Source: Gemmatimonadales bacterium
GTDB lineage: Bacteria; Gemmatimonadota; Gemmatimonadetes; Gemmatimonadales; GWC2-71-9
Assembly (NCBI GenBank): GCA_036559745.1
Contig: DATBSO010000043.1
Span: 1,833-65,832, forward strand
DNA: 64,000 bases
Direction of reading: 5' to 3'
Positions 13,154-64,000 of this stretch are shown here, piece by piece. The stretch's first letter is position 1. Each line of letters opens with the position of its first letter. Under the pieces are notes generated by a model. It saw only the letters and a program-made list of their open reading frames with translations. It did not search any database and was not told the DNA's origin. The translations under genes and the position numbers were made by a program.

Positions 13154-13243
13154 GAATGCCCGAAGGTGCCCCTAGTGCGGTCGTTCTCACCATGACCCCG
13201 GTCACACCGAGCTGTTGACCCTGCCTCTGACCGGGTCTCCCGG

Positions 13244-49989: not shown

Positions 49990-50411
49990 GATGCCGCGTG
50001 GATCGCCCGGTAGATCGCTTCGTAGCCGGTGCAGCGGCAGAGGTTGCCGGCAAGGCCCTGACGGATCTTCGCCAGGCTCGGCCGGCGACCCAGCGTCGTG
50101 GCCGTCAGGATCATGCCCGGGGTGCAGATGCCGCACTGCGCCCCGACCTCGTCCATGAAGGCGCGCTGGAGCGGATGCTCGGCGCCCAGCCCTTCGATGG
50201 TGGTGACCTCTGTTCCTTCCACCTGGGCCACGGGAATGAGGCAGGAGCAGACGGCTTCGCCATCCACGAGAACGGTGCAGGCGCCGCACTCGCCTTCGCC
50301 ACAGCCCTCCTTGGTGCCGGTGAGCCCGCAGTCTTCCCGCAACACGTCCAGCAGCCGGGCCATCGGAGAGACTTTCAGCTCCACGTCTTGCTCGTTCAGC
50401 CTGAAGCGCAT
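49986..50411 (-). CDS. xanthine dehydrogenase-family [2Fe-2S] subunit
   Basis: Cluster motifs CGEGECGACTV and CGICTPG...CRCTGY. Confidence 0.9.
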   Translation of the reverse strand: MRFRLNEQDVELKVSPMARLLDVLREDCGLTGTKEGCGEGECGACTVLVDGEAVCSCLIPVAQVEGTEVTTIEGLGAEHPLQRAFMDEVGAQCGICTPGMILTATTLGRRPSLAKIRQGLAGNLCRCTGYEAIYRAIHAAS

Positions 50412-52507
50412 GCCGCCTCTCGGATGGTTTCGGGGATGGCCGGGATCGCGCGCACGTCCAGGCCGAGATGGCGGATGGCGTTGATCACGGCGGGTGCCGG
50501 TCCGTCGATCGGCAGCTCGCCCAGACCCTTCGCGCCGAACGGTCCACCCGCGTACGGATGCTCGAGCATCACGACGTCGAGCTTGGGCGTATCCATCGTG
50601 GTCGGAATGATGTAGTTGGTGAGCTGGGCGTTGGCCATCACGCCGCCCTGCATCGCGACCCGCTCGAGGAGCGCATACCCCAGCCCTTGCGCGGTGCCGC
50701 CCTCGACTTGCCCACGGGCCAGCGCCGGATGGATGACCCTGCCGATCTCGTTGACGACAGTCACGCGCAGCGGCCGCACCTCCCAGGTATCGGGATCGAG
50801 CTCGACCTCGGCGACGTCGCAACCCCACGCGTATGCGGCGTACGCGTCCCCGCGATAGTTGACCTCATCCCACTCGATCCAGTCCGGTTGCTCGTACTGG
50901 CTGGTGACCGACAAGGGTCCGTGTCGCTGGTAGTACTCGATGGGCGTGAGGTCGCCCAGCTTCCGGCGGACCTCCTCCGCGGCGCGCTGAAGAATCCGTC
51001 CCACCACCATGCACGTGCGTGAAGCGACGGTCGGTCCGCTGTCCGGGACGATACTGGTGTCGGGAGTGGCCACCTCGATCTGCTCGTAGGGAACGCCGAG
51101 CGTGTCGGCGACGATCTGCGCGTGCATCGTCCGAGTCCCCTGGCCGATCTCCGTGCTCGACGTCAGCACCCGTGCTCCGGTCGGCGTGATCTCGACCGTG
51201 GCACGCGAGGCGAGCTTCAGCTCTCCGCTTCCGGTGAAGCCGGAGCCGTGCCAGTACATCGCCAGTCCGATGCCGCGTCCGGTCCCCGCGTACGCTTTCC
51301 GCTTCCGCCGGTAGCTCGACCGCCGCACGGCCGTGCGCAACACCTCGAGCGCGGCGCAGTCGTCGCCCAGCTTCTGGCCGGTGGCCGTCGTGTCTCCGGC
51401 GCGGAGCAGGTTGCGCTCGCGCAGCCGCACCGGATCGAGTCCGAGCGACTCCGCGATCCGCTCGAGATGGACTTCCACCGCGAATTGGGTCTGTGGCGCC
51501 CCGAAGCCTCGGAACGCGCCGTTGGGTGGCGTATTGGTGAACATCGCCCGCGCGGCGATGCGGACGTTGTCGCAGCGGTACGGCCCGCCGGCGTGAATGG
51601 ATCCGCGGGAAAGCACGACCGGCGACAGCGTGGTGTAGGCGCCCCCGTCGAGGATCACTTCGATATCCATCGCCACCAGGCGTCCGTCGCGGGTCAGCCC
51701 GGTGCGGTGGCGGACGATCGAGGGATGACGCTTCGTGGTGGCGAGCATGTCTTCTACCCGATCATAGACCAGCTTGACCGGCCGGCACGCCTTGAGTGCG
51801 AGCAACGCCGCGTGCGCCGCTATACCGGAGGGATACTCTTCCTTGCCTCCGAACCCGCCACCGGTCTCCGTCTGCACGACGCGCACGCTCGACACCGTGT
51901 CGCCGAGGACGACCGCAAGCGCCCGGTGGGCATAGAAGGGGCACTGAATGGAGCCGTAGACCGTGATCCCGCCATCCTCCGGGACGGCGATCACGCCTTG
52001 CGGCTCGATGTACACGTGCTCCTGGTGTCCGGTGCGGTAGGTGCCTTCGACGATATGATCGGCGGCCGAGAAACCCGCGGTGACATCGCCCTTCTCGATG
52101 AGAATGGTCTTGAAGGCGGTGGGCGACTGCTCCGGATCGAAGATCGGAGTGCCCGGCTGCTCGTCGAGCCCGACCGTGGCACCGAGCAGCGCTTCGCGAC
52201 TCTCGTGCGCCAGCAGCAGCACCGGCTCCGCGGCGTGGCGAATCTCCCGCTCGACCAGACACGGCTGATCGTCCGCGATCAAGGCGACGACGTTGCGGCC
52301 CGGAATGTCGCGGTGGTCTACTACCGTGAAACCGGCGGGGTCGAAGTCGAGGCGGACGCCGGCGACCTGGCCGCAGGCGACGGTGGTACGGATGGTCCGA
52401 CCATGGAGCATGCCCGGAAAGGTGAGATCGTCGGCATAGCGCGCCTGCCCTGTCGCCTTGCCGATGCCATCCTTCCGGGAGACGCTCCGACCCACGGCGT
52501 TGGTCAT
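50396..52507 (-). CDS. xanthine dehydrogenase-family molybdopterin-binding subunit
   Basis: Motifs GGGFGGKE, FRGFGAPQ and a C-terminal GLGELP. First gene of the operon. Confidence 0.9.
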   Translation of the reverse strand: MTNAVGRSVSRKDGIGKATGQARYADDLTFPGMLHGRTIRTTVACGQVAGVRLDFDPAGFTVVDHRDIPGRNVVALIADDQPCLVEREIRHAAEPVLLLAHESREALLGATVGLDEQPGTPIFDPEQSPTAFKTILIEKGDVTAGFSAADHIVEGTYRTGHQEHVYIEPQGVIAVPEDGGITVYGSIQCPFYAHRALAVVLGDTVSSVRVVQTETGGGFGGKEEYPSGIAAHAALLALKACRPVKLVYDRVEDMLATTKRHPSIVRHRTGLTRDGRLVAMDIEVILDGGAYTTLSPVVLSRGSIHAGGPYRCDNVRIAARAMFTNTPPNGAFRGFGAPQTQFAVEVHLERIAESLGLDPVRLRERNLLRAGDTTATGQKLGDDCAALEVLRTAVRRSSYRRKRKAYAGTGRGIGLAMYWHGSGFTGSGELKLASRATVEITPTGARVLTSSTEIGQGTRTMHAQIVADTLGVPYEQIEVATPDTSIVPDSGPTVASRTCMVVGRILQRAAEEVRRKLGDLTPIEYYQRHGPLSVTSQYEQPDWIEWDEVNYRGDAYAAYAWGCDVAEVELDPDTWEVRPLRVTVVNEIGRVIHPALARGQVEGGTAQGLGYALLERVAMQGGVMANAQLTNYIIPTTMDTPKLDVVMLEHPYAGGPFGAKGLGELPIDGPAPAVINAIRHLGLDVRAIPAIPETIREAACASG

Positions 52508-52912: not shown

Positions 52913-53057
52913 GCCTAGCGACCGGCGCATCAGCTGCAGGCGACTCGCTCACGCATGCATCAACTTTACGGTTCGCCGCCCGCCATCGGCAGGTGGCGAC
53001 GCTGGGAACTCATCACTGGGTTGCGCCTTCAATTGGCGTCAGACCATGCAGGTAGGC
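52913..53057 (-). repeat. attC-like repeat A (type 2, degenerate distal arm overlapping the cytochrome c 3' end)
   Basis: GCCTAGC-GACCG-GCGCATCAGCTGCAGGCGACTCGCTCACGCATGC ... CCATCGG ... GTCAGACCATGCAGGTAGGC. Confidence 0.6.
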
Positions 53058-53987
53058 ATACATTGCCTTGAGATCCTCGTCCCTTGCGAAGGTTGAAACT
53101 GCCTTCCACGGCATCCCCTCACCCAGCGTGTGGTTGTAGGGATCTACGCCCGTGCGCAGGGTGTGGATGAAGTCCTCAACACTCCACTTCGGGAGGATCA
53201 GGGTGAGGTTTGGCCCACCGGGGGGACCGGGCCCACCGCTCTTGCGGCCGGCGAGGTTCTCGCCGTGGCATAGCGGGCAACCCAGAATCGAGACTAGGTA
53301 CTTGCCGTAGTCGGCCGAGACGCCTTCAGCTGGCGCGACGATGGGTTGCGTGATGGACGGCTGCGCGCTGGTGGGGGCGAGGCCCGCCCCGATGAAGACC
53401 GCGCCGATGACGTTTAGTTTCGTCGTCGGCGTATTTGGCTCTACTGCTGGCTGCGCGCGCAAATAAGCGACGATGGCCTGGACGTCGACGTCGCTCAGAT
53501 TACGAAAGACCTCCGAGGGCATGATGATCAGGGGACGGCCGGTCTTATGCACACCCTCGCGGATGGCGCGGATGATTTCGCCATCCGACCAATCCTTGAT
53601 CTCGCCGGCAGGCGTAAGGTTGGAGGCATAAAGGGTGCCGACCGGTGGGCCGCCTTTCGAAAAGTTCTGTCCGACTAAGGGGGCTTTCCCGGTCGGCGAA
53701 TGACAGAGAGGACAATACGCACCAAATCTTGCGCCCCGCGCCACTTGGTCGGGGGTGCCGGCTACCTTTATGTCGGTGGCTGTCGGCCGGTGGGGTGGGA
53801 AGTTGAGCCTGTAAAAGCCGACCAGTGCGACGCCGATCATCAGGGAACAGGCCAAGGTCAACAAGCTCGAAAGGACAAGACCAACCCACTTCGCAACCCG
53901 GTTCCTCGCCCGCCTGGCGCGTATGGCGAGCCAAGTCCCCAACGTGGTGAGAGAGAACAGAGCGGTCACGCCGAGGGTGTCGAACAT
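53013..53987 (-). CDS. membrane-anchored di-haem cytochrome c (cassette ORF)
   Basis: Two N-terminal TM helices and two CxxCH motifs (CPLCH twice). A strong SD, GGGAGGA, precedes the ATG at 53987. Confidence 0.8.
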   Translation of the reverse strand: MFDTLGVTALFSLTTLGTWLAIRARRARNRVAKWVGLVLSSLLTLACSLMIGVALVGFYRLNFPPHRPTATDIKVAGTPDQVARGARFGAYCPLCHSPTGKAPLVGQNFSKGGPPVGTLYASNLTPAGEIKDWSDGEIIRAIREGVHKTGRPLIIMPSEVFRNLSDVDVQAIVAYLRAQPAVEPNTPTTKLNVIGAVFIGAGLAPTSAQPSITQPIVAPAEGVSADYGKYLVSILGCPLCHGENLAGRKSGGPGPPGGPNLTLILPKWSVEDFIHTLRTGVDPYNHTLGEGMPWKAVSTFARDEDLKAMYAYLHGLTPIEGATQ

Positions 53988-54104: not shown

Positions 54105-54133
54105 GCCTAACGACCTGCGCGGCTGCGTTAGAA
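54105..54133 (-). repeat. mini attC remnant B (internal-deletion derivative)
   Basis: GCCTAAC-GACCT-GCGCGGCTGC-GTTAGAA. Both terminal boxes and parts of both arms are retained, but about 105 nt of the centre is missing. Confidence 0.5.
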
Positions 54134-54175
54134 CGGAGCAAGTCGGCGACGCCGAGGACCCGGCCTCTCAGCGGC

Positions 54176-54424
54176 CTATGCCTTCTTCTTCAGCATCCCG
54201 ACGATCAAGGGAACAAGGGCTCCCACCACTGCTGAGGCGCCAACTTCGGTAGCAGTGCCGCCGCCAAGTGCCCCGCCGGCCAGCTGTCCGCCTCCTAGGC
54301 CACCCAGAGCACCCAAAATTGTGTTGATCAGTGGGCCAAGGCTCTTGGCCTTATTGGCGAGCCCTGCGACGTTTCCGCCGACGGCACCTGAAATCAGCTG
54401 AATGAGCACGGTGGTCAGATCCAT
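54176..54424 (-). CDS. glycine-rich small membrane protein (hypothetical)
   Basis: MDLTTVLIQLISGAVGGNVAGL...GGLGGGQLAGGALGGG...LVPLIVGMLKKKA, with SD GGAGGAG upstream of the ATG at 54424. Confidence 0.55.
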   Translation of the reverse strand: MDLTTVLIQLISGAVGGNVAGLANKAKSLGPLINTILGALGGLGGGQLAGGALGGGTATEVGASAVVGALVPLIVGMLKKKA

Positions 54425-55089
54425 GGTCTCCTCCGGTCGCGGGGGGTATGAGAGAGGGACACAAGCGAAGACGTCCGCGGAAAGTGTGGGCGCAAGCGGC
54501 CGCCCGAGCGACAACCCAACGGCTTCCCGAAGCTCGCGCCCTCTGGTGGTGTGTCAGGCTGGTCCACGAGCACCATCCTTGCCATGTCGTTGTTGGTGAC
54601 ATCAGGGTTGGGCACAACGTACCAGCCGTCGGGGCCTTGGCGACTGGTCATCACTTCGAGCGTCTCGTGGTGCAGTCGCGCCACGCCGTAACGTGCTCGT
54701 AGTGTAAGGCGGTAGACGAAGTGCCATAGGCCCGCTGCCTCCTGGACCCCGCCAACTAATTCGCGCGATCGGCTCGGGGGCTCGTACTCCGCGCTGGCCG
54801 GGGGTTCCGAGTGCCGCGGCGCCAGCCAGCGCCGCAGCACCTCCTTCGGTGGCAGCGCATCAAGTTCCTCGGGCGAGCCCGCGCCGAACAGCGTGTCGAA
54901 GAGTTGCTGCGTCTCTGGCCGTTGAACGTCCTGATCCTTGACATAGCGTCGGAGGCGCTCGACCTCCTCCTCTCGAAAACGGGCCATGTCCAAGGGGTGG
55001 ACCAGAGCGACGAACCCGTCCCAGTCCTCTACTGCCAGCGAAGCGAATGCAGCGCGAACTGCGGCTTCTGGCGACGCGTAGCCAGCCAT
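54415..55089 (-). CDS. hypothetical protein
   Basis: ATG at 55089 is preceded by GGAG. The composition is coherent for the first ~180 aa, but the C-terminal tail looks low quality. Confidence 0.45.
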   Translation of the reverse strand: MAGYASPEAAVRAAFASLAVEDWDGFVALVHPLDMARFREEEVERLRRYVKDQDVQRPETQQLFDTLFGAGSPEELDALPPKEVLRRWLAPRHSEPPASAEYEPPSRSRELVGGVQEAAGLWHFVYRLTLRARYGVARLHHETLEVMTSRQGPDGWYVVPNPDVTNNDMARMVLVDQPDTPPEGASFGKPLGCRSGGRLRPHFPRTSSLVSLSHTPRDRRRPWI

Positions 55090-55129
55090 GGAGCACTCCG
55101 CAAGTGAAGAACCTGTTCGGTCCTTCTAG

Positions 55130-55484
55130 GGACTCCAGTCGAGCACCTTCTTCAACGAAGCCCACCAGTTTGGCAGTCTCCTCAACAACCACGTGACCGG
55201 GTAGTCCTGGTCAGCTGGGTTGAAAATACGACGTGATCGGTGCGCCAGGGAGGGATGTGGTCGAGGAGCTCGGCGGCGAGATCACCGTGGGGGTCGATGA
55301 CCCCGACTCCCTCGCCGGCCTCGAGGTCTTGGGTTATGAGATTGCGAAGGAGGGTACTCTTGCCGGTGCCGGTCTTGCCGACGAGGTACAGGTGGTGCCG
55401 GCGATCGCTACGGGAAAGGCCGAAGGGAGACTCTCCGCCCCAGCTATGTCGAAACCCCATGTAAATGTGGTGCTCTCTATCCAT
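55130..55484 (-). pseudogene. frameshifted, truncated N-terminal fragment of a TraD/VirD4-like (type IV secretion DNA-binding/coupling) P-loop ATPase
   Basis: HHLYLVGKTGTGKSTLLRNLITQDLEAGEGVGVIDPHGDLAAELLDHIPPWRTDHVV. A -1 shift near 55225 then restores the expected (Y)FNPADQDYPV continuation. The ORF ends about 100 aa in, versus more than 500 aa expected. Confidence 0.55.
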
Positions 55485-55607
55485 GTTCCCAACAAATCTC
55501 TACTGAACCCGAACCTTCCGGCTCGGTTCCTCTTGAGATTATACCGACCAACGGCGCTCACCTGGTTGGCGGTCAGCCCCCCATTGCATGCCGTCACGCC
55601 ATGGTGT

Positions 55608-55631
55608 ATACTGAACCACATGGTTCAGTAT
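55608..55631. promoter_or_regulatory. perfect inverted repeat ATACTGAACC-ACAT-GGTTCAGTAT, candidate ArsR operator
   Basis: Read directly. The palindrome is centred on the ATG (55620) of the ArsR-family gene. Confidence 0.55.
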
Positions 55632-55985
55632 TTCCCAAACCACTTCGATGCCTCGTTCGGCGCGCTCTCGGACGCCACCCGACGCGGCGTTCTGGAGCAA
55701 CTCGGGCGTGCGGACGCTTCGATCACGGCCCTTGCCGAGAGGTTCCACATGACCCTCACGGGCATGAAGAAACATGTAGGCGTCTTGGAGCAAGCGGGGC
55801 TCGTCACCACGGAGAAGGTCGGGCGCGTGCGAACCTGTAGGCTCGGCCGCCGCGGACTGCAAGAAGAGGCGGCATGGATCGAGAGGTACCGCCAGCTCTG
55901 GAGCGCACGCTTCGACGAGTTGGACAACGTTGTCGAGGAATTAACACGGAAGGAGAGAGTCGATGCACGAAAGAAGAGAACGTGA
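55620..55985 (+). CDS. ArsR/SmtB-family transcriptional regulator
   Basis: LSDATRRGVLEQLGRADASITALAERFHMTLTGMKKHVGVLEQAGLVTTEKVGRVRTCRL is a typical ArsR wHTH. Start at the internal ATG 55620. Confidence 0.85.
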   Translation: MVQYFPNHFDASFGALSDATRRGVLEQLGRADASITALAERFHMTLTGMKKHVGVLEQAGLVTTEKVGRVRTCRLGRRGLQEEAAWIERYRQLWSARFDELDNVVEELTRKERVDARKKRT

Positions 55986-56472
55986 GGCCCCCCCCACGAA
56001 GAACGACACGACGGTGGAACGGAAGTCCGAGCTCGAACTCGTCGTCACACGAACCGTAAACGGTCCTGCGCGCCTCGTGTTCGAGGCGTGGACCAAGGCA
56101 GAGCTATTCAGGAGGTGGTGGGTACCAAAGTCGTATGGGCTGACCCTGCTTTCCTGCGAAATGGATGTTCGCGTTGGGGGGCAGTATCGCTTGGTGTTTC
56201 CCCACGAAGATTCGACGATGGAGTTCTTCGGCACGTACCTCGAAGTGACACCGCACTCACGCCTCGTGTGGACCAATGAGGAAGGAGACGACGGCACGAC
56301 CATCACCACGGTGACCTTCGAGGAAAACGCCGGCAAGACGTTGTTGGTCGTGCACGATCTCTATCCCTCGAAGGAAGCGCTTGACTCCGGATCGATGGGC
56401 GCGATGCCCGAGGCGCTCGACCAACTCGACGAGCTTCTCGCCAGCCTGGGATCAAGCAAGGAGACCAGATGA
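55963..56472 (+). CDS. SRPBCC-superfamily protein (Aha1/AHSA1-like)
   Basis: [28 protein letters not shown] ... GGQYRLVF ... [27 protein letters not shown] is present. This is the usual partner of small ArsR regulators. Confidence 0.8.
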
Positions 56473-57362
56473 CGCAGCCAATCCATCACACAAACGCTTC
56501 CGGGCGGCGTTCAGCAGTGCGGAAGACAACTTTCCTTTTAATGACGCTCGTTACGACTGACGTGTCGGCGCAGCAGAAGTCAACGACGGGCTACGCGCCA
56601 GTCAATGGACTCAACATGTACTACGAAGTCCACGGCGCCGGCAAACCGGTGGTGTTGCTTCACGGCGCGTTCATGACCATCACCAACAACTGGGCCGGGT
56701 GGATCAGCGAGCTCTCCAAAACACGGAAAGTCATTGCCGTCGAAATGCAGGGTCACGGCCGCACGGCGGACGTCCCACGAGCTATCACCTACGAAAACCT
56801 CGCCGCCGACGTAGCCGCACTGCTCAATTATCTCAAGATCCCGCGAGCGGACCTTATCGGCTACAGCATGGGCGGAGCCGTGGCGATGCAGTGTGCGATC
56901 CGCCATCCGGACAAAGTGCGAAGGGCAGTCATCATTTCGTCCACGTTCCGCAGTGACGGCATGATCGCGGAAGGGCTCGAAGCTATCCAGAAACTCACGG
57001 CGGACGCTTTCACAGGCTCGCCCATTGAGGCCGAGTACCAGAAGCTGAGTCCGACTCCGGACGACTTTCCGAACTTCGTCCAGCGAATCGTCGCCACGGC
57101 CTCGAACGGGTACGACTTCGGAGCCGACAAGCTTAAGGCCACCACGACGCCCATGTTCTTCATTCACGGCGACGCCGACGGCGTGCGGCTCGCGCACGTC
57201 GCGGAAATGTTTCGCCTAAAGGGTGGCGAGATCCACGGCGACATGAAGCCGCGCTCCGCATCGCGATTGGCCATCTTGCCCAACACCACTCACGTGACAT
57301 TGATGCAGCGCATGCCCATCATCGTCCCAATGGTGAACGACTTTCTCGACGCAAAGCCGTAG
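56469..57362 (+). CDS. alpha/beta hydrolase
   Basis: VVLLHGAF, nucleophile elbow GYSMGG, and IHGDADG. The start overlaps the SRPBCC stop (ATGA). Confidence 0.85.
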
Positions 57363-57407
57363 CCATGCTGCGGTCCCGTGGCAGAAGTGGTCCCGTCTTT
57401 CTGTACG

Positions 57408-57547
57408 GTCTGAGCGGGGGGAAGTCAGCTGCAGGCGATCATACTCGCGCCCGCACAAACTGTCGTTCCTTCGCGCCCTCGACGGAGCGTACCGCCCGAG
57501 CGGAGCCTTGCGCGCTTCGGCCTGTCGGCTGCATTTGCGGGTTAGGC
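57408..57547 (-). repeat. attC-like repeat C (type 1, proximal box degenerate GTCTGAG)
   Basis: ...AAGTCAGCTGCAGGCGATCATACTCGCGCCCGCAC ... CCTGTCGGCTGCATTTGCGGGTTAGGC. Confidence 0.65.
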
Positions 57548-57565: not shown

Positions 57566-57766
57566 TCACGCGCGGCGAGGCGTAGCTCGTATCAGCCTCA
57601 GTGCCCAGACGCTGAGTCCACCAGCCAGAAGGAGGCCGAGCCAGGAGGCCCAAAGGGGCACTGCGTAGCCCGCGAGGTCCACCGGCCAGTGACGGAAGAG
57701 CCGAAGCAGATGACCTACGGCAATCAGCCCAAACAGCGTGCCAGAGATCTGTAAGTAGGTTCGCAT
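57566..57766 (-). CDS. small 2-TM membrane protein (cassette ORF)
   Basis: MRTYLQISGTLFGLIAVGHLLRLF...LWASWLGLLLAGGLSVWAL, with SD GAGGAG upstream of the ATG at 57766. Confidence 0.5.
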   Translation of the reverse strand: MRTYLQISGTLFGLIAVGHLLRLFRHWPVDLAGYAVPLWASWLGLLLAGGLSVWALRLIRATPRRA

Positions 57767-57820
57767 AGCAATCTCCTCTACTCGCCCAATACCACTGCGC
57801 ACTGCACGTCGCTGGGTGCG

Positions 57821-57963
57821 GACTAACGAAGTGCAAATCAGCTGCAGGCGACCATACTGACGCCCACACGAATCAACGCTTCCATTGCTTGGCCGCCGGG
57901 AGCGCAGTGCCCGCTAGGAGGGCCGACCGACGTCGGCCTGTCGGCTCCATTTGCCGGTTAGGC
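57821..57963 (-). repeat. attC-like repeat D (type 1)
   Basis: GACTAAC-GAAGT-GCAAATCAGCTGCAGGCGACCATACTGACGCCCACAC ... CCTGTCGGCTCCATTTGCCGGTTAGGC. The VOC stop codon TAA lies inside the distal box. Confidence 0.7.
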
Positions 57964-58458
57964 GGCGCCCTGCGCGACCCGCGACCACTCAGCCCACGAG
58001 ACCACCCCCAGCTCAGGCCTCGGCGGCCCTGGAAGACGCGCCACCAGCTCCACGACGTGAGCGTCAGGGTCGTCAAAGTAGATCGACGCAGCCGGTATGA
58101 AGCCAAACACCGAGGGCACCGTAGTCCGTTGCTGAAAGAAGTCGCGACACTCGGTGCCTCGCTGGTCGAGCCGTGCTACCAGTGCCGTGAGCTCCGGCAG
58201 TCCCACCTCGAACGCAAAATGCTGCGTGTGAATGCGATGGCGGTCACGCTCCCACAAGCCCAGCAGGGCATGGCCCTGACCACCGACCCAGAGGAAGGCG
58301 AAGCGGCGTGCACCGCGACTGTGCGCATCGACGCGCGCGGCATCCACCTCTCGCCGTAGGGCGAGCGCGAGCCCCAGCTCCGTCCCGTAGAACTCCACGG
58401 AGCGGTCCAGGTCCATGACGTCCACATGAGTTTCGAACACGCCGCGGATCACGCCCAT
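57958..58458 (-). CDS. VOC/glyoxalase-family protein (cassette ORF)
   Basis: THVDVMDLDRSVEFYGTELGL ... HFAFEV ... YFDDPDAHVVEL are the VOC beta-alpha-beta-beta-beta signatures. Confidence 0.8.
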   Translation of the reverse strand: MGVIRGVFETHVDVMDLDRSVEFYGTELGLALALRREVDAARVDAHSRGARRFAFLWVGGQGHALLGLWERDRHRIHTQHFAFEVGLPELTALVARLDQRGTECRDFFQQRTTVPSVFGFIPAASIYFDDPDAHVVELVARLPGPPRPELGVVSWAEWSRVAQGAA

Positions 58459-58523
58459 TCCTGGTTGCGAGATGCTCTGCCCCGACAGACAAGTTCCGCG
58501 ATTACGTGAGCCTCGTGGTGTCG

Positions 58524-58661
58524 GCTTAACGAAATGCGCATCAGCGGCGGGCGATCATGGTAGCGCCCGCACTACCTACGTGCCGCTGACCTCCAACGGG
58601 GGTCAGCGCCCGAATGGAGTTCGGGACGGTCCCGCCCGTCGGCTGCATGCGCTTGTTAGAC
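58524..58661 (-). repeat. attC-like repeat E (type 1)
   Basis: GCTTAAC-GAAAT-GCGCATCAGCGGCGGGCGATCATGGTAGCGCCCGCAC ... CCGTCGGCTGCATGCGCTTGTTAGAC. The internal hairpin is GCTGACC/GGTCAGC. Confidence 0.7.
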
Positions 58662-58675
58662 TGCGTCCTGCACGA

Positions 58676-58906
58676 TCACCGAAAAAGGTGACCTAGCTCC
58701 CGCTTGAACTCCGCCTTCCGGGCCTCAGGAGTGCCGTCCTCCAGACCCTTGCACTTATGAGCTGCATGCGCGTCCCAGCCCTCCGGCCACATCGTGAACT
58801 CCTTCTCCATACAGGCTGGGCACAGCACACGCTTGTGTGCCAAGTCTGAGGGAGTGAGCACCGCGGCGTTCAGAATTGTGCCGTTTCTGCTGAGTTGCGG
58901 CTTCAT
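58676..58906 (-). CDS. small Cys/His-containing hypothetical protein (cassette ORF)
   Basis: 76 aa with CPAC ... HAAHKC spacing, possibly a zinc-binding knuckle. No family was recognised. Confidence 0.45.
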   Translation of the reverse strand: MKPQLSRNGTILNAAVLTPSDLAHKRVLCPACMEKEFTMWPEGWDAHAAHKCKGLEDGTPEARKAEFKRELGHLFR

Positions 58907-58940
58907 TCGGCGACTAGCCTCTCAGGGATCCTTTGGCGCT

Positions 58941-58968
58941 GTCTAACGCACCGCGCGCGATGTTCGCC
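58941..58968 (-). repeat. mini attC remnant K
   Basis: GTCTAAC-GCACC-GCGCGCGAT-GTTCGCC, starting 2 nt downstream of the DUF4440 gene stop. Same architecture as remnant B. Confidence 0.4.
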
Positions 58969-58969
58969 C

Positions 58970-59377
58970 TCAGGAGTCGGCGGCAGTCGCATGCGACCAC
59001 ACCACCTGCCATTGCATCCCGTGCCGCTCGTATAGATCGGTATGCCAATACCGCTGACGCGGAATGTGGCGGACCTGCACGATGATTTCGAGCTCTGACC
59101 GGTACCGGATCACCGCGACATTTCCGTAGAGGCGAACCGCGATCGATTCAGGCTCCCAGTACAGGTAATGAATCTGCCCGGCGCTGATGCCACCTAGGTA
59201 CTGCTCTCTCGAGAGCGCCCCGCCCAGAGGGTTGATGAGTTGAAAGTCCTCGGAGTGCAGCTGTTCCGCTCGACCAACATCACCAGTGACCAGCGCATGG
59301 AGTCGCTCGCGCTCGGTCGAGCGGAGGAGCTCCATGTCCCGATCCTCGGCAACCGGGGTCCGATCCGAGCTGGTCAT
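58970..59377 (-). CDS. DUF4440/SnoaL-like (NTF2-fold) protein (cassette ORF)
   Basis: LHALVTGDVGRAEQLHSEDFQLINPLGGALSREQYL ... WHTDLYERHGMQWQVVWSHAT. SD GGGAGG is present. Confidence 0.75.
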   Translation of the reverse strand: MTSSDRTPVAEDRDMELLRSTERERLHALVTGDVGRAEQLHSEDFQLINPLGGALSREQYLGGISAGQIHYLYWEPESIAVRLYGNVAVIRYRSELEIIVQVRHIPRQRYWHTDLYERHGMQWQVVWSHATAADS

Positions 59378-59409
59378 GATGGCACCTCCCGGAACTCAAT
59401 AGCGAGGCT

Positions 59410-59533
59410 GCCTAACCTGCAAATCAGCTGCAAGCGACTTGTGAGAACCTACGTTCCTTAGCGCGCCATCGGAGCGTCGTGTGACCAGGAGCCCAAACGC
59501 TTCGCGCTTGTCGGCTGCATGTGCGGGTTAGGC
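59410..59533 (-). repeat. attC-like repeat F (type 2)
   Basis: GCCTAAC-CTGCAAATCAGCTGCAAGCGACTTGTGAGAACCTACGTTCC ... CCATCGG ... GCGCTTGTCGGCTGCATGTGCGGGTTAGGC (124 nt, counted). Confidence 0.7.
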
Positions 59534-59946
59534 AGCACGCGCGACGAGCCCACCCGTTTTGCCGGCTCCACGCTTTGCGCGCTGAGGCGTACGGCACCGG
59601 GTGACGAGCGCTGGGCAGCCCTTGACCATCAATGCACTGCCGTGAAAGGACAGCGGCAACACCTCCAAGCTGGAGGACCATTGCTTGAAATGAAAGCGCC
59701 CCCAGGAACGGCCGTGAATCGCTTGAGTCGGGGCGAGATGAATGGCACAGAGCGCGGATCATAGGTACCCTGGGTGGCTCTCCGAGGTGATCCGCGAGGT
59801 CCATGAGGATCTCTTAACGGCCGACTCACGGTCCGTTCGTGCATTGGGGTGCAATTTCTCTGTGTCCGCCACAAGCCTACGAAAGCCGGTGCTGCTATTT
59901 GGCTTGTGGGTGGCGCTCTGACGTACTTTCCCGGATCCGAGGACGT

Positions 59947-60999
59947 ATGAGATACCATTTCCTATTGCCCGGCCTGCTGACACTCGGCGCGTTTGGGCTG
60001 GCTGGCTGCGGTGAAGAGACCACCCAGCCGAACACGGCGGTGGATCAACCGAGCGCCCCACAGCTCGCCGTCACCTCGAACACTTGGCTCGACCGGCGCG
60101 AAATGCCTTTTGACCTAATATCCCAGGCCGCTGCTGTTGTGCCCAACGCAGCAGGCCAATCCATGCTCTACGCCATTGGGGGGCAAAAGCCAGACCGCGC
60201 GCCCGAGGGGGACGTGCCGATGGGCGAGGTGCGGGCCTACAATGTTGCGACCGACACCTGGACCAGCAAACGGGACATGCCTGCTGCCCGCTATGGGATG
60301 AGCGTCGGGGTCATTGGCGGGAAGATCTATGTAGCCGGAGGGTTTGCCAACGGGTACCGACCGAGCGCGTCGGTCTTCGTCTATGATCCCGCGTCCAATG
60401 CCTGGACCCGGAAGCGAGACATGCCGGAAGCTAGCCGCGGTGGCCCGACGGGAGTCATCGAAGGCAAACTCTACGTGGTCACGTTCAATCGGATCCTGGA
60501 AGCGGTCCCCCACTTCTTCCGGTACAATCCGACCACGGATTCCTGGACCAAGCTCCCGAGCCCTACCAATTACCCCCTGCTGGGAGGGGGCGGGGGCGTA
60601 ATCAACAAGAAGTTGTATCTCATCGGTGCCGACCGGCAGTCCAATCAGTCCAAGGTACTGGAGTACGACCCGATCACCAACAAGTGGACGAAGAAGCAAT
60701 CGTGGCCTGGCCCGTCCTGTCTGCCCTACTCCTGTTACCTCGAGGGTCCGACGGTGGTCATGCTCTCTCACCTGTACGTGTTCGGCAGGGAGTGGAGGTA
60801 TGGGGGGTGGAGGGACTCTTTTGGCATCTTCATCTATGACCCGGTCAGCAATACCTGGGCAAGAAAGCCTGGGGTCATCCCGTTGGCCTACCCGAACGTA
60901 AGCGACTTTGCGGCAGCCCGCGTGTCTCTGAATGGAGAACCTCGGGTCGAGCTGATCGGGGGCTACCGTCCCTACAACAATGTGCAGTACATCCCATAG
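59947..60999 (+). CDS. Kelch-repeat beta-propeller lipoprotein (reverse-oriented relative to the array)
   Basis: Lipobox GLAGC at the start MRYHFLLPGLLTLGAFGLAGC. Repeated units follow the pattern ...GGKIYVAGG...VYDPASNAWT... Confidence 0.75.
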   Translation: MRYHFLLPGLLTLGAFGLAGCGEETTQPNTAVDQPSAPQLAVTSNTWLDRREMPFDLISQAAAVVPNAAGQSMLYAIGGQKPDRAPEGDVPMGEVRAYNVATDTWTSKRDMPAARYGMSVGVIGGKIYVAGGFANGYRPSASVFVYDPASNAWTRKRDMPEASRGGPTGVIEGKLYVVTFNRILEAVPHFFRYNPTTDSWTKLPSPTNYPLLGGGGGVINKKLYLIGADRQSNQSKVLEYDPITNKWTKKQSWPGPSCLPYSCYLEGPTVVMLSHLYVFGREWRYGGWRDSFGIFIYDPVSNTWARKPGVIPLAYPNVSDFAAARVSLNGEPRVELIGGYRPYNNVQYIP

Positions 61000-61049
61000 C
61001 GTGCGCATGGGCTGTTCGTGTGGGCCTGGTCATGACGCCGTTTGCCCAG

Positions 61050-61075
61050 GCCTAGCGACTCGCACGATACTGCTC
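61050..61075 (-). repeat. isolated attC arm remnant G-prime
   Basis: GCCTAGC-GACTC-GCACGATACTGC matches only the proximal arm. No partner arm is present, and it lies 57 nt from repeat G. Confidence 0.35.
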
Positions 61076-61131
61076 CCGACTGTCGTCTCCTACCCATGGG
61101 GCTCCACGAATCGGCGGGGTGGTGGCGTGCC

Positions 61132-61271
61132 GCCTAACGACCTGCGCATCAGCTGCAGGCGATCATGGTTCCGCCCGCACAATTCTACGTGGCACTGATC
61201 GCCACCGGCGATCAGTGCCCGCACGAAAGGTTCCGCCCCATCGGCCTGTCGGCTGCATGCGCGGGTTAGGC
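61132..61271 (-). repeat. attC-like repeat G (type 1, best-preserved; 140 nt)
   Basis: GCCTAAC-GACCT-GCGCATCAGCTGCAGGCGATCATGGTTCCGCCCGCAC ... GCACTGATCGCC-ACC-GGCGATCAGTGC (internal 12-bp hairpin) ... CCTGTCGGCTGCATGCGCGGGTTAGGC. The methyltransferase stop TAA lies inside the distal box. Confidence 0.75.
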
Positions 61272-61916
61272 GGCAGCGGCTCGGGTGTAGACGCCTGCGT
61301 ACCAGACCGCGCTCTGGGCTTGAAAGATCCGGTCGAATCCAGCGGCTCGCACAAGCGCCTCCATTCGATCCGGCGAATGCACAAACACCCTGAACTGGCT
61401 TCCGCGGAGTTCTCGCACCGCATTCTGCAGCGTGGTCACGGCACGGATGCCCCAGCGCGCGCGGGGGTAGCTGTACGCGAAGAGTCGCTGCGCCTTCCCC
61501 AAGGCGATCTGCAGCAGGCCCTCGTACTCAGGATCACAACAGACCACCCGATCCATCGTGACCACATCGACGACCGGCAAACTGTCAGCCGCGTGGCGCA
61601 CTTCGGCGTTGATGAACTCGACCCGTCCCGTGTGACCTCGGCGCTCGGCCTCCTCGGCGGCTGCCTGCAGAAACGCGCCGGAGGGCTCCACCTCCCACGC
61701 GCGGCTCACTCCGCGAGCCAACAGCTCGTGATGGAGCACGCCGACCCCCCCGCCGATGTCCAAGAGCGTCGCTGCGGCTGGAAGGCTCGCCTCCAGCCCG
61801 CGGAGCATGAGCGCAGTCGCCGGGAGCGGTCCTCGCCGACGGTAGCGGCGGAGATCGGCTGCGGCCCGTTTACGGCCAAACTGCTGGTCGAGCACCGGGG
61901 CCCCACAGCAGTCCAT
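61266..61916 (-). CDS. class I SAM-dependent methyltransferase (cassette ORF)
   Basis: Motif I is LLDIGGGVGVLHHELL. Start at ATG 61916 with SD GGAGGG; the longer track ORF runs into attC H. Confidence 0.8.
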   Translation of the reverse strand: MDCCGAPVLDQQFGRKRAAADLRRYRRRGPLPATALMLRGLEASLPAAATLLDIGGGVGVLHHELLARGVSRAWEVEPSGAFLQAAAEEAERRGHTGRVEFINAEVRHAADSLPVVDVVTMDRVVCCDPEYEGLLQIALGKAQRLFAYSYPRARWGIRAVTTLQNAVRELRGSQFRVFVHSPDRMEALVRAAGFDRIFQAQSAVWYAGVYTRAAAA

Positions 61917-61943
61917 TGCGCCCTCCACAATGCTGGTGCTGCC

Positions 61944-62081
61944 GCCTAACGCACTGCGCATTAGCTGCAAGCGCCTCGCTCGCTTATGCACTCCCCTACG
62001 TTCCTTTGAACTGCCATCGGAGCGTGGCAATCGACTGACCTGCGTGTGGACGTGCTTGTCGGCTGCATGAGCTTGTTAGGC
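61944..62081 (-). repeat. attC-like repeat H (type 2)
   Basis: GCCTAAC-GCACT-GCGCATTAGCTGCAAGCGCCTCGCTCGCTTATGC ... CTACGTTCC ... CCATCGG ... GTGCTTGTCGGCTGCATGAGCTTGTTAGGC. The DUF998 stop TAA lies inside the distal box. Confidence 0.75.
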
Positions 62082-62741
62082 GGCAGCTTGGGGCGCCGGT
62101 CTCTGGCCCGCTACGGCAGCACCGAAACCAAGCAGGCGTATAGCCATCATCTCTATCCAAACAAACAGCAACAGGAGCCAGAGCCGCTGCCGTAGCGGTC
62201 CCGACATTCCGATTCCGCTGAGTTCGGAGATCAGCCATGCGGAAGCTGGAAGCACGAGGGTTGCCGCCGCTAATGACCGCCAAGCAGGATCCCTTACCAT
62301 GCGAGGATAAAGCGTGAACGGGCCAAGTACCGCCGCCAGGAAAATCACATCGCCCAGGAGCAAGTGCATTCGATGGTGCAGGGATGGCGTCGCCGCTTGG
62401 CATCCAGGATCGCATGAGGCAAACGCCAGGGCAATGTAGGCCAAGCCGTACACGACGAGAACGCTCGGGCCGAGCCATCCTCCTACATCTGAACGGATTC
62501 CTCGGTGCACTGCCAGCGCAAATGCCACCATCAGGACGCCGTACGGGAGGAAACCCGCAAAGTTCATGATCGTCGCACTAGGAGCATCGGTCGCACCCAG
62601 TTCGCTGATGGCGTTCTTGAGATGGTGGTACCCTGGGTACTTCAGGCTCGCAGCAATCGCGGCCGCCGCATACACAAAGGGCGCCACCATGCCGCATGCT
62701 GCGAGTAATACCGACCGACTCTGGGGAACGGTGCTGGCCAT
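62076..62741 (-). CDS. DUF998-like polytopic membrane protein (cassette ORF)
   Basis: About 6 TM helices (MASTVPQSRSVLLAACGMVAPFVYAAAAIAASLKYPGYHHLKNAISELG...). SD GGGAGG precedes the ATG at 62741. The family call is tentative. Confidence 0.6.
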   Translation of the reverse strand: MASTVPQSRSVLLAACGMVAPFVYAAAAIAASLKYPGYHHLKNAISELGATDAPSATIMNFAGFLPYGVLMVAFALAVHRGIRSDVGGWLGPSVLVVYGLAYIALAFASCDPGCQAATPSLHHRMHLLLGDVIFLAAVLGPFTLYPRMVRDPAWRSLAAATLVLPASAWLISELSGIGMSGPLRQRLWLLLLFVWIEMMAIRLLGFGAAVAGQRPAPQAAA

Positions 62742-62762: not shown

Positions 62763-62900
62763 GCCTAACGACTTGCGCATCATCTGCAAGCGACTCGCTC
62801 GCGCATGCAGCAACCCTACGTTCCGCCGCCGCCATCGGCGGGTGGCGGCGCTGGAAAACTCAACCCGGAAGCGCTTGTCGGCCGCATGCGCTCGTTAGGT
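62763..62900 (-). repeat. attC-like repeat I (type 2)
   Basis: GCCTAAC-GACTT-GCGCATCATCTGCAAGCGACTCGCTCGCGCATGC ... CTACGTTCC ... CCATCGG ... GCGCTTGTCGGCCGCATGCGCTCGTTAGGT. Confidence 0.75.
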
Positions 62901-62902
62901 AG

Positions 62903-63015
62903 CGCCGGATTAGGTTCCGAAATGAAGCTTCCACAACCGTTATCTCCACGACGTACGACCGCCACTATCGGAGTTCAGTTCGGACGCGCTTGTCGGCTGC
63001 ATACGCTGGTTAGGC
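62903..63015 (-). repeat. attC-like repeat J (type 2, one arm degenerate or lost)
   Basis: ...CGTACGACCGCCACTATCGG ... GCGCTTGTCGGCTGCATACGCTGGTTAGGC. It abuts repeat I with no ORF between them. Confidence 0.55.
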
Positions 63016-63038: not shown

Positions 63039-63177
63039 CTACCATTCGTGCTCAAGAGTATTGATGAGCTTGCCGAACGGGTCATGGACGTAGAACCGCC
63101 TTATCGAGGCCGAGGATGTCTTGGTAGAACTGTTTGGCTACCGCGATATCGGCGGCCGCGATGGATGCGAGCCTGTC
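63039..63177 (-). pseudogene. internally deleted VOC/glyoxalase remnant
   Basis: My minus-strand translation in one frame is DRLASIAAADIAVAKQFYQDILGL (VOC N-terminus, no start codon). A second frame gives RFYVHDPFGKLINTLEHEW-stop (VOC C-terminus). The two frames are joined out of frame and about 90 aa are missing. Confidence 0.4.
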
Positions 63178-63184
63178 ACGTAGT

Positions 63185-64000
63185 CTACCTTCGGCCCGGC
63201 AGTTCGCGGAGCGCGCCGGTCAGTGTGTCCACGACTTGGTCGGCGTCGGCAAGCGAGAGCGGCATCGGGCCGCGGATCTTGATGACGTTGTGGTACGGCC
63301 CGTCGGTGCCTACGAGCACGCCGCGCTGGCGCATGCGATCGACCACGAAGGTCGCTTCGTCTGGTGCCGGCTCGAGGGTGTGCCGGTCACGCACGAGCTC
63401 GACGCCGAGGAAGAGGCCCGATCCACGCACATCCCCGACGATCTCGAACTCACCCATCAAGGGCGTCATTCCGCTCAACAACCGCTCGCCCACAAGGAGT
63501 GCGTTCCGCTGGAGCTCCTCGTCGAGGGTCACCTGCAGCGTCATGCGGCCGGCCACGCACGCAGCCGTGCTGCCGCCGAAGGTACTGAAGAACTCCATGC
63601 CGTTGTCGAAGCTGTCGGCGATGGCGCGCGTGGTGATCACCGCCCCCATCGGATAGCCATTGGCAATCGGCTTGCCGAGAACGACGATGTCGGGCGTGAC
63701 GTCGTGGGCCTGGAAGGCCCAGAAGTGGGTGCCCAGACGGCCGAAGCCCGTCTGGACCTCGTCCGCGATGCAGATCCCGCCGGCCGCGCGCACGCGCGAG
63801 TACACGTCGGCCAGGAAACCCGTCGGAAGCATGATCTGCCCGCCCACGCTCGGGCAGGTCTCGGCGATGTAGCCCGAGAGACGTCGTCCCTTCGCGGCGA
63901 GATCGTCAATCACCTCCCCGACCCGCGACGCGAACCACGAGCCGGGGTCAGCGTGAGCACCGCGCGCGCGGAAAACGTCGGGGAGCGGCGACCTGTGCAC
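63185..64000 (-). CDS. class-III (PLP) aminotransferase, N-terminus beyond the right edge
   Basis: ADEVQTGFGRLG and the PLP-lysine context DIVVLGKPIANGYPMGAV. It is similar in pattern to AGXT2 / beta-alanine-pyruvate or omega-aminotransferases. Confidence 0.85.
   Translation of the reverse strand: MHRSPLPDVFRARGAHADPGSWFASRVGEVIDDLAAKGRRLSGYIAETCPSVGGQIMLPTGFLADVYSRVRAAGGICIADEVQTGFGRLGTHFWAFQAHDVTPDIVVLGKPIANGYPMGAVITTRAIADSFDNGMEFFSTFGGSTAACVAGRMTLQVTLDEELQRNALLVGERLLSGMTPLMGEFEIVGDVRGSGLFLGVELVRDRHTLEPAPDEATFVVDRMRQRGVLVGTDGPYHNVIKIRGPMPLSLADADQVVDTLTGALRELPGRR

Follow-up and report, generated by a model that had tools for sequence, protein, structure and literature searches.

The array described here carries seven complete attC sites between 57.4 and 62.9 kb of the window (the whole 64,000-nt stretch of DNA that was analysed), with remnants further left to 52.7 kb, and the top strand of these sites, which is also the coding strand of the cassettes, is the window's minus strand. 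Very probably we are dealing with the promoter-distal portion of an integron-type cassette array that lacks an integrase and continues rightwards onto another contig (C158) of the same genome (G000). As such it would belong to the CALINs (clusters of attC sites lacking an integron integrase). Its cassettes could then move only with IntI supplied in trans, and would depend for their transcription on upstream genes of the same direction or on promoters of their own.

The window contains 11 copies of the motif GTTAGGC where 3.0 would be expected, a count that none of 100 shuffles attained, and all copies lie within 54.1-63.0 kb. A GCCTAAC/GTTAGGC pair bounds sites D to I at both ends, and the sites of the window are 124-143 nt long. 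Scores were obtained with R1, a covariance model for which 81 intI-adjacent attCs of four relatives served as input. From right to left, site I is located at 62763-62900 (59.5 bits on the minus strand, 9.0 on the plus strand), site H at 61944-62081 (69.6 and 8.4 bits), site G at 61132-61271 (70.1 and 14.6 bits; also folded as DNA, see below), site F at 59410-59533 (62.9 and 18.4 bits) and site E at 58524-58661 (63.4 and 10.0 bits), followed by site D at 57821-57963 (63.5 bits on the minus strand) and site C at 57408-57547, the R' end of which is degenerate (37.9 bits on the minus strand). Products of decay are also found in the array, namely mini-attCs, an orphan arm and gutted genes. Reading of the minus-strand sequence revealed a mini-attC at 58941-58968 that retains two boxes around a deleted centre, with no significant match to the model, and another without its centre at 54105-54133 (a weak R1 match of 12 bits), while a degenerate attC (A) at 52913-53007 scores 16 bits on the minus strand and keeps the left-arm motif with two mismatches. 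At 62901-63015 an orphan R''-L'' arm with its centre (J; minus strand, right-arm motif at 62991-63015) is fused to site I. In alignment, two metagenome loci (L172 and L173) show one complete attC in this region, and the window has about 116 extra bases.

Each cassette of this array reads, from right to left, as an R' box, a leader of 20-70 nt with a Shine-Dalgarno sequence, the gene, and a stop codon within or just before R''. The preliminary description, made from the bare sequence, had pointed to three minus-strand genes that stop inside GCCTAAC boxes, and all three were recovered: a DUF998 gene at 62076-62741 (PF06197, 9.4e-26), a methyltransferase gene at 61266-61919 (Methyltransf_25/11) and a VOC/glyoxalase gene at 57958-58458 (PF00903, 3.8e-8), whose TAA codons lie within the R'' boxes of sites H (62075-62081), G (61265-61271) and D (57957-57963), respectively. 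The remaining minus-strand ORFs end shortly before repeats, as had also been noted, here at 1-42 nt before a repeat or mini-repeat (at 57566, 58676, 58970, 54176 and 53013). These include a DUF4440 gene (58970-59377; PF14534, 2.4e-17), a 76-aa ORF (58676-58906) and a 78-aa membrane-like ORF (57566-57802), both without Pfam match, and a di-haem cytochrome c gene (53013-53987; Cytochrome_CBB3 and Cytochrom_C). Four plus-strand genes run opposite to the array and thereby speak against minus-strand polarity. One, a reversed cassette gene, encodes a Kelch-repeat lipoprotein (59947-60999; Kelch_1, 4.5e-30), and the others form an operon of an HTH regulator, an AHSA1/SRPBCC gene and an alpha/beta-hydrolase, within a 3.3-kb stretch without a full attC (54134-57407), where the minus-strand ORFs include a P-loop remnant.

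At the right end, a VOC remnant had been reported beyond 63.0 kb, and it holds up: the gene (63040-63177, minus strand), read from its frames as internally deleted, consists of N- and C-terminal pieces that match both ends of an intact VOC cassette in another locus, L113 (tblastx, 1e-5). The aminotransferase gene next to it had been taken as what adjoins the array in place of intI, which did not stand. What the window contains (63185-64000, minus strand) is the 3' portion of a gene fusing APH, peptidase M23 and class III aminotransferase. This fusion gene is cut by the contig end 141 bases beyond the window (window-equivalent position 64141 on contig C43, at a distance of 1.1 kb from the last repeat), and it would belong to a composite cassette of about 5 kb. 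We considered it as a conserved chromosomal flank, since the same gene lies beside attCs in another genome (G026), and rejected this because the gene is 96% identical where core DNA is 64-79% identical, and because attCs flank it on both sides in L172 and L173. Copies of the fusion gene in G026 and in contigs from soil metagenomes are 95-96% identical to it, and L172 and L173, at 96% identity, span from the right end of C43 to the left end of C158. Continuation of the array on C158 is thus the most likely arrangement, a link carried by these 96%-identical metagenome contigs and not by the G000 assembly; the bridging contigs depart from C158 in the part upstream of the amine oxidase gene. The array would pass the contig end through the composite cassette, comprising a flavin amine oxidase, the fusion gene, the VOC remnant and one attC, and reach C158, which holds five further attCs and then ordinary metabolic genes. 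Between genomes, the composite cassette is 95-96% identical where the identity of the core genes is no more than 64-79%. Tentatively, the array might still be active with IntI acting in trans, and this might be a metabolic cassette of several genes that passed recently from one Gemmatimonadales lineage to another, a scenario that we regard as possible but rather doubtful.

The integrase itself was sought throughout G000 (3.75 Mb). No match to TIGR02249 over the cut-off and no IntI remnant by tblastn were found there, the attI core motif of the relatives (GTCTAATyCnnGTTAGGC) is absent, and blastn with the attI regions of G139 and G135 gave no match. To the left of the array lies a xanthine dehydrogenase operon (molybdopterin subunit gene at 50396-52507, minus strand; MoCoBD_1, 4.4e-88) as the distal chromosomal flank. 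An intI or attI immediately left of 52.7 kb, named beforehand as the observation that would overturn the proposed polarity, was not encountered, and the contig holds no IntI match. The expectation of a cognate intI and attI to the right of 63.0 kb is borne out as to the side, which is the one they occupy in relatives, while none was found in G000. The genome has neither intI beside the array nor attI at its upstream end in an assembly that is 93% complete; it has seven full sites and remnants on C43 and five sites on C158, all on one strand, with intI on neither contig, and the repeats occur on four of its contigs only. The array resembles the CALINs (2016, as summarised in PMC8618304) in having several co-oriented attCs and cassette genes without a nearby intI, and differs in that it appears split over two contigs and that its status depends on a fragmented MAG.

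The same polarity would also be expected of a complete integron whose intI-attI platform was lost during assembly or binning, the missing integrase then being an artefact. G000 is a soil MAG of 188 contigs in which an intI may have gone unassembled, contig breaks occur at or near attC arrays, and IntI exceeds the cut-off in 87 of 151 genomes of the order and in 4 of 10 other genomes of the genus. Against this, the 3.75 Mb hold neither an IntI fragment nor an attI-like core. On C158, the putative upstream end adjoins genes for BKACE, an amidohydrolase and a purine/allantoin permease, with no integrase in 5 kb more, and a search of that end for an attI remnant gave four GTCTCC(C)T direct repeats and nothing like the relatives' attI core. 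Furthermore, G026, the sole other genome sharing the composite cassette, has only a 91-residue intI remnant, on a contig without a syntenic counterpart in G000. An unassembled platform is thus unlikely, though it keeps a real share of the probability, and an array truly without integrase is preferred. Since the missing integrase is either a genuine feature or an assembly gap, it is not evidence against the polarity.

The polarity was established with the help of relatives in which the integrase is present. In many of them, arrays of the window's repeat family start right after bona fide IntI genes (TIGR02249, 410-470 bits; IntI identity is 61% between G139 and Gemmatirosa and 52% to IntI1). 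Nine such arrays in the Gemmatimonadales, including that of the cultured Gemmatirosa kalamazoonensis, start at attI beside the integrase, with the bulge-bearing arm facing intI. The gene lies upstream of the array in G139, G135, G059, G062, G033, G002, G012 and plasmid 1 of Gemmatirosa kalamazoonensis, on the strand on which each attC starts with the bulge-bearing arm, which is the published 'inverted integrase' layout (PMC13323075). Plasmid 1 of strain KBS708 (NZ_CP007129.1) shares the attC sequence family and the arm geometry with the window, and its bulge-bearing arm relates to the upstream end in the same way; the 'inverted integrase' integrons have an intact intI and attI core, while the window's genome has neither. 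R1 gave 38-70 bits to the seven full sites on the minus strand and at most 18.4 bits on the plus strand, scores which, the model having been built from homologous sites, carry the orientation over by homology and are no independent test of structure; better scores on the opposite strand, named beforehand as a refuting outcome, were not obtained. According to the bulge rule, which is also stated in published work (PMC2727003), the direction is read from a bulge that the R''-L'' arm carries at position 16. This rule is right for 9 of 9 class 1 attCs of known direction and for all 81 attCs of the relatives, and it reads minus for all seven sites of the window. G·T wobble pairs number eight on the plus strand and one on the minus strand. 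Of 64 ORFs in the arrays of the relatives, 55 follow the top strand and 9 are reversed (bottom strand), and 17 of the 55 top-strand ORFs have their stop inside R''. The placement of the top strand on the minus strand, first argued from stops and bulges, therefore agrees with R1, intI synteny, the bulge rule, wobbles and gene direction, and the plus strand is taken as the recombinogenic bottom strand because every test puts the top strand on the minus.

The opposite polarity, in which the plus strand would be the top strand, the plus-strand genes would be correctly oriented and intI would lie left of 52.7 kb, could draw on the four plus-strand genes, on the GCCTAAC...GTTAGGC reading that is possible on both strands and on folding energies that are about equal. 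It is already contradicted, and we consider it highly improbable, by the R1 scores, by the other orientation in the nine intI-anchored arrays, by the bulge rule and by the xanthine dehydrogenase operon in the place of intI. Folding energies and z-scores were tried as a strand discriminator and rejected, as the strands are alike (for site G, -42.8 vs. -44.7 kcal/mol) and only the bulge side discriminates. GC skew in the window was too weak and noisy to tell the leading-strand template.

Minus-strand polarity thus leaves the plus strand as the one that, as single-stranded DNA, would fold into the hairpin recombined by integron integrases. This hairpin consists of an R box (GCCTAAC/GTTAGGC), an unpaired spacer (GACCT opposite GG) and a 6-bp L helix, and the extra bases on its 3' (R''-L'') arm are a C and, six base pairs further in, a T. 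The DNA fold of the plus strand at 61132-61271 gives GCGCAT/ATGCGC, one bulged C on the 3' arm and then CAGC/GCTG. Of the pairing first drawn for site G, the GCGCAT helix, the bulge and CAGC were reproduced, while the supposed 2x3 loop is better read as a T·G wobble, a G-C pair and one bulged T, so that the arm has two single extra bases 6 bp apart. Structure prediction on both strands hence placed the bulges on the plus-strand 3' arm, as anticipated. As in attCs, the terminal RYYYAAC (R'') and GTTRRRY (R') boxes pair (in 81 related sites, pairing of the R helix reaches 99.3%), the inner L''/L' repeats are imperfect, with extra bases (the first of them at position 16) on the minus-strand 5' arm, and GTTAGGC is invariably preceded on the top strand by a C, equal to a G after the AAC of R' on the bottom strand. 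According to published work, the R''-L'' arm bears the extra bases, strand choice depends on the first of them, and a G follows the AAC of R' on the bottom strand (PMC2727003), features which all hold when the plus strand is read as bottom strand. In the helices 99.4% of cells are paired and six pairs show compensatory (double) changes, and the covariation score of 0.253 (0.082 in shuffles; reached by 0 of 500) is supportive and not proof, the sequences being related. Recombination of the window repeats by IntI as a folded bottom strand is predicted.

Comparison with class 1 attCs (aadA1, cmlA1, estX and others) revealed the same RYYYAAC...GTTRRRY boxes, extra bases at positions 16 and 23 of the R''-L'' arm, the ...GCCGAC L'' motif and the bottom-strand G after AAC, and the extra-base geometry is the same as in the aadA1 attC. 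The class 1 sites are shorter (about 60-114 nt), and their L helix has 3 bp with 5 nt of spacer instead of the 6 bp with a 2-nt spacer on the R'' side seen in the window. The class 1 arm cited earlier for comparison, GTCGGCTTGAAC-GAATT-GTTAGAC, is real, being the reverse complement of the aadA1 attC start on plasmid NZ_CP045846.1 and of a printed attC oligonucleotide (PMC2117344), but its attribution to 'aadA7' was not confirmed; such sites have been called 'attCaadA1/7' (PMC2727003). The first bottom-strand extra base is C in the window, the commoner class 1 base being G, and was considered as a novelty of the lineage; this was rejected, as estX, cmlA1 and dfrA15 share the C and G-to-C changes have little effect (PMC2727003). 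The VCRs of the Vibrio cholerae superintegron are likewise long (about 130 nt), homogeneous within one genome and branched at the centre, and are recombined as bottom strand with extra bases on the R''-L'' arm (PMC2727003), like the arm of the window; they have three extra bases (G16, T20, T24) where the window has two, and their intI is divergent from the array, unlike the co-directional intI of the Gemmatimonadales. That the repeats are a lineage-specific palindromic intergenic element (REP- or terminator-like) merely resembling attC would suit hairpins that are intergenic, lie downstream of genes and have no match in Rfam (which holds no attC family), yet its probability is negligible given that the family forms arrays beginning after bona fide IntI genes in many relatives and agrees with class 1 attCs in boxes, bulge positions and spacing.

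The locus is one more integrase-less array beside the many already known. Its polarity matters for the annotation of cassettes, for the choice of the recombinogenic strand and for where an integrase is to be sought, and the argument from the bare sequence (stops inside R'' and bulge side) gives the right answer for long, lineage-specific attCs as well. Finally, the locus documents the integrons of Gemmatimonadales as being of the co-directional ('inverted integrase') type, with an attC geometry identical to that of class 1.

The rightmost 11 kb of the window are composed of short genes alternating with hairpin-forming repeats, whose plus-strand sequence is GCCTAACGACCTGCGCATCAGCTGCAGGCGA ... 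TGTCGGCTGCATGCGCGGGTTAGGC. The box GTTAGGC occurs 11 times in the window against 3 expected, always within 54.1-63.0 kb, and Rfam contained no family matching such sites. Three stop codons, placed inside these boxes by the preliminary description, were confirmed at 57957-63, 61265-71 and 62075-81; they belong to genes for a VOC/glyoxalase, a methyltransferase and a DUF998 protein, respectively. Folding also regained the pairing described for site G (61132-61271), in which one C bulges out of the 3' arm on the plus strand. The minus-strand genes start 20-70 nt past the R' box, with a GGAGG-like motif ahead of the start. The sites show the anatomy that defines attCs and the cassettes have the classical layout. 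The best reading of the array is a CALIN, an attC cluster without an integron integrase, of the Gemmatimonadales attC family; CALINs are well described (PMC8618304).

The attC polarity of the window is the minus strand. A lineage covariance model was built from 81 distinct attCs aligned in top-strand orientation, taken from four intI-anchored arrays of relatives (G139, G135, G059 and G062). The helices of this alignment are paired in 99.4% of cells with double changes at six pairs, and its covariation score is 0.253 vs 0.082 in shuffles. Applied unfiltered to the whole window, the model found seven sites with 38-70 bits on the minus strand, the plus strand giving no more than 18.4 bits at these sites; the scores reflect sequence homology besides structure. 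The polarity proposed earlier therefore survives the comparison named for its refutation, namely better covariance-model scores on the opposite strand.

Bulge position gave the same strand. [quoted passage not shown] In a calibration set of nine class 1 integron attCs of known direction, from three plasmids, numbering from the outer edge of R'' puts the first extra base at nucleotide 16 in 9/9 and the second at nucleotide 23 in aadA-type sites. The window minus strand reads GCCTAAC-CC-GCGCAT-G(16)-CAGCCG-A(23)-CAGGC. A "bulge at 16" score chose the correct strand for all nine class 1 and all 81 intI-anchored Gemmatimonadales sites; in the window it picked the minus strand at each of the seven sites. 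The arm GTCGGCTTGAAC-GAATT-GTTAGAC, cited in the preliminary description, is the exact reverse complement of the aadA1 attC start and appears in PMC2117344 as well. Its spacing equals that of the window's GTCGGCTG-C-ATGCGC-GG-GTTAGGC (T, six paired bases, extra base, eight bases, box), and some class 1 cassettes, like the window sites, have C as the first bottom-strand extra base. The class 1 cmlA1 attC (NZ_CP045846.1) and the Gemmatimonadales sites have a common arm core, G-CAGCCGAC ... GTCGGCTG; the likeness probably reflects a constraint on the L box and not common descent.

Helix pairs other than Watson-Crick take the G·T form when the plus strand is read and the C·A form on the minus (8 vs 1 for the opposite in the window, 26 vs 1 in G139), an asymmetry that is mostly one inherited column and serves as supporting evidence only. 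Gene direction is consistent with this polarity: ORFs in the relatives' arrays lie on the top strand in 55 cases and on the bottom in 9, and the stop-inside-R'' pattern, on which the preliminary description relied, recurs in 17 of the 55. Folding energies and GC skew did not discriminate the strands.

Synteny was studied at the intI neighborhoods of same-genus G139 and G135 and same-family G059 and G062. At all four loci, long arrays of the window's repeat family start just past the intI 3' end, and in every case it is the arm that terminates in GTTAGGC when the window's plus strand is read that faces intI. Outward from intI in G139, the stop is followed by an attI-like GTCTAATTCTAGTTAGGC, then by a pair of small co-directional ORFs and then by GCCTAAC-CT-CGCTAAT-G-CAGCCG-A-CAAACG ... 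GTTAGGC. The arrangement recurs at the IntI loci of G033, G002 and G012, picked by integrase alone, and on plasmid 1 of the cultured Gemmatirosa kalamazoonensis, where all 21 attCs are on the intI strand. Integrase and cassettes are co-directional in these Gemmatimonadales arrays, the published "inverted integrase" layout (PMC13323075; PMC3575428). Carried over to the window, this arrangement gives the minus strand as top strand and an intI expected on the right. An attI-like core, GTCTAATyCnnGTTAG(G/C)C, is common to three Gemmatimonadales integrons 100-280 nt past the intI stop (L017 18760-18790; L023 ~1125-1150; L169 ~13210-13235) and could be a lineage attI signature.

On that right-hand side, the preliminary description had seen a VOC remnant, which is real, and an aminotransferase gene in the expected place of attI/intI; the latter is cargo. 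The contig (C43) stops 141 bases past the window, inside this gene (63185-64000, minus strand); where the gene is complete, its product is an APH-peptidase M23-class III aminotransferase fusion. That the fusion gene is a core flank was rejected: it is 94-96% identical in same-genus G026 as well as in some ten contigs from soil metagenomes, whereas ordinary DNA of the host and G026 is just 64-79% identical, and in two metagenome loci (L172 and L173) attCs lie upstream and downstream on its strand, with a flavin amine oxidase gene ahead of it. A composite cassette of ~5 kb (window 63185-64000 plus host contig C158:1-2000, locus L163), comprising flavin amine oxidase, fusion gene, VOC remnant and one attC, is 95-96% identical in the same genome and contigs; against the core divergence, sequence identity suggests a multi-gene cassette spread horizontally and recently. 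Homology with G026 ends exactly after ...CCGAAGG at the fusion gene's 3' end (63185-63190 vs L030 14109-14160), resulting in unlike protein C-termini, GRR-stop vs 18 more residues; no GTT crossover motif was found at this junction.

L172 and L173 also bridge C43, at its right end, and contig C158, at its left (96% identity, gap of about 2.9 kb), an inferred scaffold that draws on related contigs rather than on the host assembly. Besides a class I/II aminotransferase gene, C158 bears five further attCs, all on the strand continuing the window's minus. Past these attCs come genes of the BKACE, amidohydrolase and purine/allantoin permease types, and this stretch has no integrase. Four GTCTCC(C)T direct repeats within about 90 nt (L163 5050-5140), just after the BKACE gene and directly upstream of the first attC (R'' degenerate), differ from the relatives' attI core. 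With a xanthine dehydrogenase operon on the window's left flank, the ~21-kb array seems to be sited among purine-catabolism genes.

The attC arm motif occurs mainly in Gemmatimonadales soil MAGs. IntI exceeds the cut-off in 87 of the 151 genomes sampled from the order. The host assembly (3.75 Mb, 188 contigs, 93% complete) contained no integron integrase, its best TIGR02249 matches being Xer-like (89 bits vs a cut-off of 265), and tblastn of relatives' IntI found no remnant. More attCs of the family at C105:2012-2114 and C55:10811-11405, including 43-nt short forms (37-44 bits), show that its cassette complement exceeds the window's. In G026, intI is reduced to a 91-residue C-terminal remnant (C82 42189-42461; L031 10190-10462), with attCs after it on the same strand; this is a decaying integron platform, and G026 is the sole other genome sharing the fusion-gene cassette.

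Decay products in the window include two ~28-nt mini-attCs, a gutted VOC gene and an orphan R''-L'' arm (62901-63015) fused to site I (62763-62900). Arm and site I together correspond to one intact attC in L172/L173, relative to which the window is longer by about 116 bases, a second diverged R''-L'' arm inserted into one attC. The single-stranded plus strand would fold into the integrase substrate, and excision or shuffling of cassettes would need IntI in trans, since the genome has no intI. Cassettes may be expressed by read-through from co-directional upstream genes or from internal promoters. The polarity first proposed is correct and was carefully reasoned. Integrons are already known in Gemmatimonadota, and the array is an ordinary one, co-directional integrases and C as the first bottom-strand extra base both being known already.
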